The translations under genes were made by a program, and so were the position numbers. Below, in pieces: positions 19,948 to 21,034 of a DNA stretch of 64,000 nt. Below the pieces are notes generated by a model, which saw nothing but the letters and a program-made list of their open reading frames with translations, was not told the DNA's origin and did no database searches. The first letter of the stretch is position 1. Every line of letters starts with the position of its first letter. The stretch comes from Escherichia coli (GTDB taxonomy: Bacteria; Pseudomonadota; Gammaproteobacteria; Enterobacterales; Enterobacteriaceae). The DNA lies in the NCBI RefSeq assembly GCF_050320075.1, contig NZ_CP190018.1. One strand, written 5' to 3'.

Positions 19948-21034
19948 CGCTGACAGAACCTATTTCTCCAATTGTTCACCTGTTGATCCCACAAGTACCA
20001 GACCAACCTATTTTGGCGATACCGATGGCTCAGTTGGTGCAGTTTTGTACGCGCTTTTCGCAACGGGACATTTGGGAATCATGGCTGAAGGAGAAAATTT
20101 CCTTGGCCAGTTGCTTAATATAGAAGATGAAGTTCTCAACGTATTGCTAAGGGAGAACTTTAATGAGCAACTTGACACTAATGTTAATACAATAATCAGT
20201 ATTCTGAACAGAAGAGATATAGTTTTAGAAAGTCTTCAGCCTTATTTAGTTATTAATAAAGACGCTGTGACGCCATGTACGTTTCTGGGTGACCAAACCG
20301 GCGATCGATTTAGTAATATCTGTGGCGATCAATTTATCATCGATTTGTTAAAACGTATAATGAGTATCAATGAAAACGTTCATGTATTAGCTGGAAATCA
20401 TGAAACGAATTGCAATGGTAACTATATGCAGAACTTCACGCGTATGAAACCACTTGATGAGGATACCTACGCTGGGATAAAAGATTATCCTGTATGTTTC
20501 TATGACCCTAAATACAAAATAATGGCAAATCATCATGGGATAACTTTTGATGATCAGCGAAAACGTTACATTATAGGACCGATAACAGTCTCTATTGATG
20601 AAATGACCAATGCTCTCGATCCGGTCGAATTAGCGGCAATTATTAATAAAAAGCATCATACTATAATTAATGGTAAAAAGTTTAAAACTAGCCGGGCTAT
20701 CTCTTGTCGATCCTTTAATCGTTATTTTTCTGTTTCGACAGATTACAGACCTAAACTTGAAGCACTATTAGCATGCTCACAAATGTTAGGTATAAATCAA
20801 GTTGTTGCACATAACGGAAATGGTGGGAGAGAACGCATAGGTGAAACGGGGACAGTTTTAGGTCTTAACGCCCGTGACAGTAAACATGCTGGAAGAATGT
20901 TCAGCATGCATAATTGCCAAATTAACCCTGGTGCGGGGCCTGAGATAACCACTCCCTGGAAGTCTTACCAGCATGAAAAAAACAAAAATGGACTTATGCC
21001 TTTGATTAGAAGGCGCACAATGTTACAGCTCTGA
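19948..21034 (+). pseudogene. 5'-truncated AT-rich gene with metallophosphatase-like motifs, interrupted by IS1 (possibly yhiJ-like by position)
   Basis: Reading frame runs in from the IS1 end (track start is a TTG inside IS1); motifs GDTDG, GDQTGDRF and AGNHE; adjacent to yhiI. Confidence 0.5.

Follow-up and report, generated by a model that had tools for sequence, protein, structure and literature searches.

Among the closest described relatives of the protein considered here are WipA (PDB 5N6X, 5N72 and 5Y9O) and WipB (PDB 5NNY), effectors of the Dot/Icm system of Legionella pneumophila, which share 10–16% identity with YhiJ of Escherichia coli. In WipA, residues D180, D184 and R185, N212 and H213, and H290 serve as metal or phosphate ligands or as the proton carrier, H290 being a ligand of Mn, and the substitutions D180A and H32A abolish activity (PMC5454105). 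Activity of WipB is reduced by D118A, R123A and H151A (PMC5572681). A second group for comparison comprises PPP-like enzymes, namely lambda phosphatase, PrpA and PrpB of E. coli, ApaH, the Shewanella cold-active tyrosine phosphatase (PDB 1V73) and RLPH2. YhiJ and its tandem paralogue YhiL are products of E. coli genes that have no demonstrated function. Our literature search returned no paper mentioning their Pfam family, DUF4049, and we found no link in the searchable literature between yhiJ and a phosphatase or between the family and phosphoester hydrolysis. The sole published proposal that we found, a myo-inositol oxygenase, does not fit the fold described below. We propose, with a probability of about 0.8, that the gene fragment described here is a yhiJ gene cut by an IS1 element that still encodes a complete catalytic domain, that of a divergent calcineurin-like phosphatase of the PPP type, nearest to the Wip proteins in architecture.

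The fragment occupies positions 19948–21034 on the forward strand of the window, the whole 64,000-nucleotide stretch of E. coli DNA that was analysed. It contains the final 1087 nt of yhiJ, roughly two-thirds of the gene counted from its 3′ end, and comprises one stray base of codon 179, codons 180–540 (361 sense codons) and a TGA stop at 21032–21034. Similarity to K-12 yhiJ begins exactly at 19948, corresponding to gene nucleotide 537, and continues to the stop with a DNA identity of about 97.7%. The encoded protein is 98% identical to YhiJ, with no stop codons or frameshifts. The whole DUF4049 model (PF13258, positions 1–333 of 333) is matched by remnant residues 20–329 with an E-value of 5.2e-178, and GC content is 0.389, as against 0.571 for yhiI–rbbA and 0.518 for the window as a whole.

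From 19948 to 26524 the window is collinear with K-12 (97.3% identity), which puts the remnant in its orthologous place upstream of yhiY–yhiI–rbbA–yhhJ; the gene order in K-12 is yhiN, yhiM (minus strand), yhiL (frameshifted), yhiJ, yhiY, yhiI, rbbA and yhhJ. Anchoring the locus is yhiI (21400–22467, forward strand), which is identified by its open reading frame and annotation, encodes a HlyD-family adaptor and is the first gene of the conserved backbone set yhiI–rbbA–yhhJ. The boundaries given by the sequence-only reading prove exact to the base, matching both the IS1 end and the start of yhiJ similarity, and its estimate of about 360 remaining codons, its remark on AT-richness relative to the flanking backbone and its suggestion of K-12 yhiJ as the counterpart are all borne out. 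Its placing of the fragment next to yhiI holds for the locus but not for the immediate neighbour, as a 37-codon gene, yhiY (21224–21337, forward strand; annotated in K-12 and in strain YZLc1-3), lies between the two.

Joined directly to the remnant is the right end of an IS1 element of 768 bp (19180–19947, forward strand), which is recognized by its terminal inverted repeats, by the insA and insB reading frames with their programmed frameshift and by the annotation of an IS1 family transposase. The inverted repeats are typical (GGTGATGCTGCCAACTTACTGAT ... ATCAGTAAGTTGGAGTCATTACC). The truncation of the 5′ end by IS1, as originally read, is placed at the junction 19947/19948, with codons 1–178 gone. 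The element bridges yhiJ and yhiM: on its left is a 3′ remnant of yhiM (18823–19179, minus strand), a gene for a DUF2776 inner-membrane protein, of which the last 357 nt are kept and which forms the left boundary of the deletion. PGAP labels this remnant in YZLc1-3 as ‘DUF2776 family protein, missing N-terminus’. Window positions 18488–19179, covering the 3′ end of yhiM and the yhiN–yhiM spacer, match positions 1827–2518 of the K-12 locus at 96.4%.

Between these two boundaries 3482 bp of K-12 sequence are absent, with IS1 in their place. The lost segment consists of 696 nt of yhiM (its 5′ part), all of yhiL, the yhiL–yhiJ spacer and yhiJ codons 1–178; this 3.48 kb to the left of the remnant, the yhiJ promoter included, was deleted by IS1. 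No 9-bp target-site duplication surrounds the element, the flanks TGAGCCGAG and CGCTGACAG differing from each other, as is characteristic of an adjacent deletion mediated by IS1 or of two IS1 copies having recombined. Because the whole DUF4049 model lies within the remnant, what IS1 removed was a separate N-terminal domain, and the conserved domain remained whole. The strain is also without functional yhiM and yhiL. A role in GABA export and acid resistance has been reported for yhiM (PMC6604978).

A megablast search finds remnant DNA in 4283 of 5426 complete E. coli genomes, always at the chromosomal yhiJ locus and annotated as yhiJ, DUF4049 or ‘YhiJ/YhiL family protein’; the gene is absent from about 21% of complete genomes. 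Both deletion junctions occur together in only two of the 5426, YZLc1-3, which is identical to the window over the 12-kb stretch compared, and Ec-U3. Intact yhiJ is found in K-12. In O157:H7 and other strains yhiL lies immediately upstream of yhiJ (positions 8001–11558 in O157:H7 and its relatives, 3597–5203 of the K-12 locus); yhiL is intact in O157:H7, frameshifted in K-12 and entirely deleted in the window.

Two further strains carry IS1 in the same gene. In E. coli VL40 (positions 4293–6147, aligned with 19180–21034 of the window) the IS1–yhiJ junction falls at the identical nucleotide, the left end of the deletion reaches 289 bp further into yhiM, and the yhiJ allele is K-12-like, differing at 27 of 1083 sites with a dS of 0.087. 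This pattern suggests either a hot spot for IS1 insertion or a single old insertion, with nested deletions and recombination later on. In E. coli SMN013SH2 (NZ_CP023673.1, 285729–287755) a simple IS1 insertion elsewhere in yhiJ splits the DUF4049 gene in two. The gene seems to be a recurrent target of IS1, in keeping with its AT-richness.

The promoter region of yhiL and yhiM is a ‘promoter island’ bound by H-NS (PMC3661553). Low GC content, absence from about a fifth of genomes and this H-NS-bound island upstream fit horizontally acquired, largely silenced DNA, without proving it, and such an origin of yhiJ is plausible. Both yhiL and yhiJ are listed among late or weak SOS-induced genes (PMC11002266, PMC6590174). 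A search of the K-12 locus for LexA boxes gave two one-mismatch sites, which is not above chance, and PADLOC returned no match to a defence system.

DUF4049 is a very small family: of 1.84 billion cluster representatives 54 belong to it, and fragments of genes from E. coli make up most of these. Full-length members are YhiJ, YhiL, copies in E. albertii and four distant metagenomic proteins with 19–26% identity, so that the known distribution covers Escherichia, Shigella and E. albertii plus these metagenomic members (P0013, P0050, P0052 and P0054). A scan of genome contigs with the family alignment gave 100 pattern matches and no confirmed relative, and the four most distant members, used as queries, retrieved nothing beyond two of their own sequences. 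P0050 and P0054 lie on metagenomic contigs (MAG GCA_965192375.1, 1977–3668, and a second contig, 5001–6125); P0050 adjoins biotin-synthesis genes, and P0054 adjoins genes for an ABC-transporter auxiliary protein and for polysaccharide synthesis.

Alignments of 17–18 family sequences, down to 19% identity, contain only 17–18 invariant columns. Twelve of these are the residues G202, D203, D205 and G206, G293, D294, D298 and R299, G328 and H330, H374, and H467 (K-12 YhiJ numbering), and N329 is nearly invariant, with P0013 having GDHE in place of GNHE. With so large a share of the invariant columns falling on the residues of five motifs, the motif match is more than chance. In the order GDxDG, GDxxxDR, G(N)H, H and (G)H, the motifs correspond to the signature of calcineurin-like metallophosphoesterases.

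Motif I, GDTDG (20015–20029), has GDxHG as its canonical form and, in the model, sits in the loop that leads from the first β-strand into a helix. Motif II, GDQTGDRF (20288–20311), contains D294, D298 and R299 in GDxxxDR spacing and is placed by HMMER alignment to WipA and by hhalign. Motif III, AGNHE (20390–20404), has N329 as the putative metal ligand and H330 as the putative general acid, aligned with N212/H213 of WipA and N75/H76 of lambda phosphatase. These three had been picked out, in this order, from the letters of the DNA, and to them we add two more: motif IV, NHHGI (20528–20542), with the invariant H374 aligned to H290 in the WipA segment ‘SHAPI’, and motif V, AHNGNGG (20807–20827), with the invariant H467 (GH in most members) at the end of a β-strand in the model. 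All five are on the forward strand; motifs I and V are placed from the predicted structure and conservation. The D-x-H of motif I is not found in the family, as had been remarked for this copy: D203 is present, and the histidine position is taken by an aspartate, D205, in 17 of 17 members. As the aspartate is invariant family-wide, it is a trait of the family and not a sign of decay.

Links to known phosphatases at the sequence level are weak and below every curated threshold, yet all point in one direction. Pfam Metallophos (PF00149) matches the remnant with an E-value of 0.0074 (17.2 bits, motifs II–IV only, below the family threshold); across the family the best matches are P0054 (E = 7.1e-5) and P0050 (E = 3.3e-4), and seven of eight members reach E ≤ 0.1. 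Against Pfam WipA_Phos (PF21663) the remnant gives an E-value of 0.018, and against the NCBIfam model T4SS_Wip, ‘Dot/Icm T4SS effector Wip’ (NF043030), 6.7e-4, with 18.8 bits as against a cutoff of 300. For the remnant, these three profiles return weak matches between E = 7e-4 and 2e-2. When the DUF4049 profile is searched against all PDB sequences, three WipA entries come first, followed by ApaH (E 0.015–0.022), and GDxxxDR, GNHE and H374 fall on D180/D184/R185, N212/H213 and H290 of WipA, in agreement with the suggestion that the motifs occupy catalytic positions. WipA was reached by the family profile alone; with YhiJ as a phmmer query, the PDB sequences gave no match. In hhalign against lambda phosphatase, PrpA, PrpB and ApaH together, GDQTGDRF...AGNHE aligns with GDLV-DRG...GNHE, with a one-residue gap in motif II, at an E-value of 0.017 and a low probability of 2.6%; against lambda phosphatase alone only GNHE aligns (probability 0.35%). 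A 138-residue WipA fragment used as the query for Wip homologues gave one partial match.

Structure-level links are strong, resting on AlphaFold models that are predictions from shallow alignments of 17–18 sequences. The model of full-length K-12 YhiJ has a pLDDT of 66, with most of the catalytic core at 70–95. Foldseek against the PDB places WipB (E = 7e-6) and WipA in all of the top five positions and finds nothing else significant, with modest TM-scores to WipA and WipB (0.36–0.43) and high r.m.s.d. In the structure-match table for the same model, in which the figure given for each match carries no label, WipA stands at 12.7, WipB at 12.3 and the Shewanella cold-active tyrosine phosphatase at 12.2, followed by ApaH (10.2), calcineurin (10.0), PP5 (9.6), the phosphatase domain of PnkP (9.3), RLPH2 (9.2), PP1 (9.0) and lambda phosphatase (7.7). 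As modelled, YhiJ shows structural similarity to solved metallophosphoesterases, and prediction returns the fold that the motifs had suggested, with WipB and WipA as the top PDB matches.

Modelled alone, the remnant has a pLDDT of 75.9 and a pTM of 0.81, with every motif at the C-terminal end of a β-strand. Inserted between motifs I and II is a WipA-like hairpin of two helices (residues 48–66 and 76–99); the spacing between these motifs is 91 residues in the remnant, 86 in WipB and 150 in WipA. In AFDB50, once Escherichia and Shigella are set aside, the nearest matches are proteins of Pandoraea annotated ‘calcineurin-like phosphoesterase’ (E = 3e-12); after them come proteins labelled ‘WipA-like phosphatase domain’ and, from Legionella, a Dot/Icm substrate. 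One UniProt entry from E. coli already bears the name ‘Phosphohydrolase’. The Pandoraea proteins (A0A0G3IC85, A0A0H3X3R0, A0A0H3X0B7 and others) have 645–739 residues, match with E-values of about 1e-10 to 3e-12, and are the nearest structural relatives outside Escherichia, closer in rank than the Legionella Wip proteins. On these models, DUF4049 very probably adopts the metallophosphatase fold.

With residue roles assigned after lambda phosphatase and WipA (PMC5454105), intact YhiJ would hydrolyse phosphate monoesters at a two-metal centre. Its metal ligands would be D203, D205, D294 (bridging), N329, H374 and H467, of which we infer H467, as the fifth metal ligand, from the topology of the model. 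Phosphate binding would fall to R299, and protonation of the leaving group to H330 in partnership with D298. The aspartate that replaces the motif I histidine may shift the metal preference. The intact protein is probably a working phosphatase, although with less assurance than attaches to its fold. That its substrates are proteins is a more tentative suggestion, which we would not favour; of the three closest solved structures, two are tyrosine-directed enzymes and one is Ser/Thr-directed. A broader conjecture, equally tentative, is that YhiJ and YhiL, encoded in tandem and confined to Escherichia, are both active protein phosphatases of the Wip-like type. They might be directed at tyrosine, as are WipA, the Shewanella enzyme and RLPH2, would have an unusual metal site of carboxylates and histidines only (GDxDG), and might act on bacterial or conceivably host phosphoproteins; they appear to be kept silent by H-NS and switched on late in the SOS response. 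Were this conjecture true, they would represent an unrecognized class of E. coli protein phosphatase beside PrpA, PrpB, Wzb and Etp.

Aspartate is a competent metal ligand. The motif I histidine is nevertheless essential in WipA, where H32A is inactive, so with aspartate at its place in YhiJ activity cannot be assumed. Owing to this substitution, DUF4049 might be a metallophosphatase fold that is catalytically dead, serving as a pseudo-phosphatase or scaffold in the manner of Vps29 or the B subunits of DNA polymerases. We regard this as improbable, as the remaining catalytic residues are invariant across members that are only 19–26% identical, and the residues with purely chemical roles, H330, D298 and R299, which inactive relatives usually lose, are kept; in addition, dN/dS of yhiJ between E. 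coli lineages is 0.10–0.17, indicating that intact alleles are under purifying selection. The published assignment of YhiJ as a myo-inositol:oxygen oxidoreductase came from metabolic-model gap filling. Orth and Palsson (2012, PMC3423039) picked yhiJ by BLASTp and reported that its knockout in the Keio collection failed to grow on myo-inositol, but the wild type itself reached an OD600 of only 0.017 in the assay (PMC3423039). Our searches of Pfam, NCBIfam, PDB sequences and folds gave no match to an inositol oxygenase, and all significant structural matches are metallophosphoesterases. The HD-domain di-iron inositol oxygenase and the metallophosphoesterases differ in both fold and metal site, and we give the oxidoreductase assignment almost no credence.

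Whereas these alternatives concern the intact protein, another concerns the copy in the window, which might still be expressed through read-through from IS1 and a start at TTG 19934, giving an active stand-alone catalytic domain. The remnant keeps the entire DUF4049 domain, is predicted to fold alone with the pTM given above and shows no decay so far, an IS1 promoter is directed towards it, and its open reading frame runs from 19934 to 21034. That TTG, inside the IS1 end, is however the sole in-frame start upstream, with no Shine–Dalgarno sequence before it, and the next in-frame ATG lies past motif I. The frame is also unlike that of insB, whose stop (19930–19932) sits 2 nt upstream; an in-frame InsB–YhiJ fusion was considered and rejected on the same grounds. 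A scan of the remnant for promoters and terminators stayed at background level, with promoter-like sites no commoner than in shuffled sequence. The native promoter region is deleted, PGAP already calls the remnant a pseudogene in YZLc1-3 (‘incomplete; missing N-terminus’), and the rarity of the arrangement (2 of 5426 genomes) gives no sign that it has been selected. Expression of a free catalytic domain is accordingly very unlikely. With its promoter region lost, no credible start or ribosome-binding site, and a frame out of register with insB, the remnant is read as a pseudogene; non-expression is something that we infer rather than observe, and this copy of yhiJ is almost certainly dead in this strain. 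Its inactivation is, to judge by a frame that has yet to acquire a stop or frameshift, recent. As a local feature it is an ordinary, already annotated pseudogene generated by IS1.

The surrounding DNA has been rearranged in other ways. A Tn7-like element has integrated between yhiN and yhiM, and its sil/pco module for resistance to copper and silver takes up window positions 1 to about 18487, ending with ISCro1 of the IS66 family (CDSs at about 15614–18229); in the identical genome YZLc1-3 the TnsA gene of this element is truncated by another IS1. The same integration site has been described for Tn7/pco/sil from pMG101 (PMC8417528). What the window itself presents is a rare pseudogene made by IS1, at a locus that a Tn7-like sil/pco island had already reshaped.

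Of wider use is the hypothesis of fold and mechanism for YhiJ and YhiL that is added here, together with recognition of the motif II spacing and helical insertion shared with Wip. The fold could also have been assigned by anyone putting the public AlphaFold model through Foldseek; its assignment is of use, but it is no surprise. Assignment to the PPP/Wip group provides a testable biochemical hypothesis with named catalytic residues, and links AT-rich accessory genes of a gut commensal to a fold best known from Legionella effectors.

Comparison with the named systems places YhiJ close to, and outside, the Wip proteins. Common to both is a motif II of the form GDxxxDR (GDQTGDR in YhiJ, GDEVADR in WipA and GDELVDR in WipB; PMC5572681), which in the classical enzymes is one residue shorter (GDxxDR), and both have a helical insertion between motifs I and II, in YhiJ as modelled. 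They differ in motif I (GDxDG in YhiJ, GDxH(G/A) in Wip), in motif III (the canonical GNHE in YhiJ, (S)NHG in Wip), in their N-terminal domains and in their hosts. By the curated test, with 18.8 bits where 300 are asked, the family is outside Wip. The hosts of YhiJ, Escherichia (E. coli K-12 included) and Shigella, are not known to have a Dot/Icm system. Relative to the PPP-like set, YhiJ has an insertion between motifs I and II that is longer by about 60 residues, an extra residue in motif II, aspartate for histidine in motif I and an additional N-terminal domain of 178 residues, and no significant sequence similarity to that set was found. YhiL has the same catalytic domain as YhiJ, with all motif residues kept at about 34% identity, and a different N-terminal domain, DUF6860, where YhiJ has an unassigned one. 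The most fitting description of the YhiJ/YhiL family is that of a divergent sister to the Wip-like group, restricted to Escherichia and belonging with it to the PPP-like metallophosphatases.
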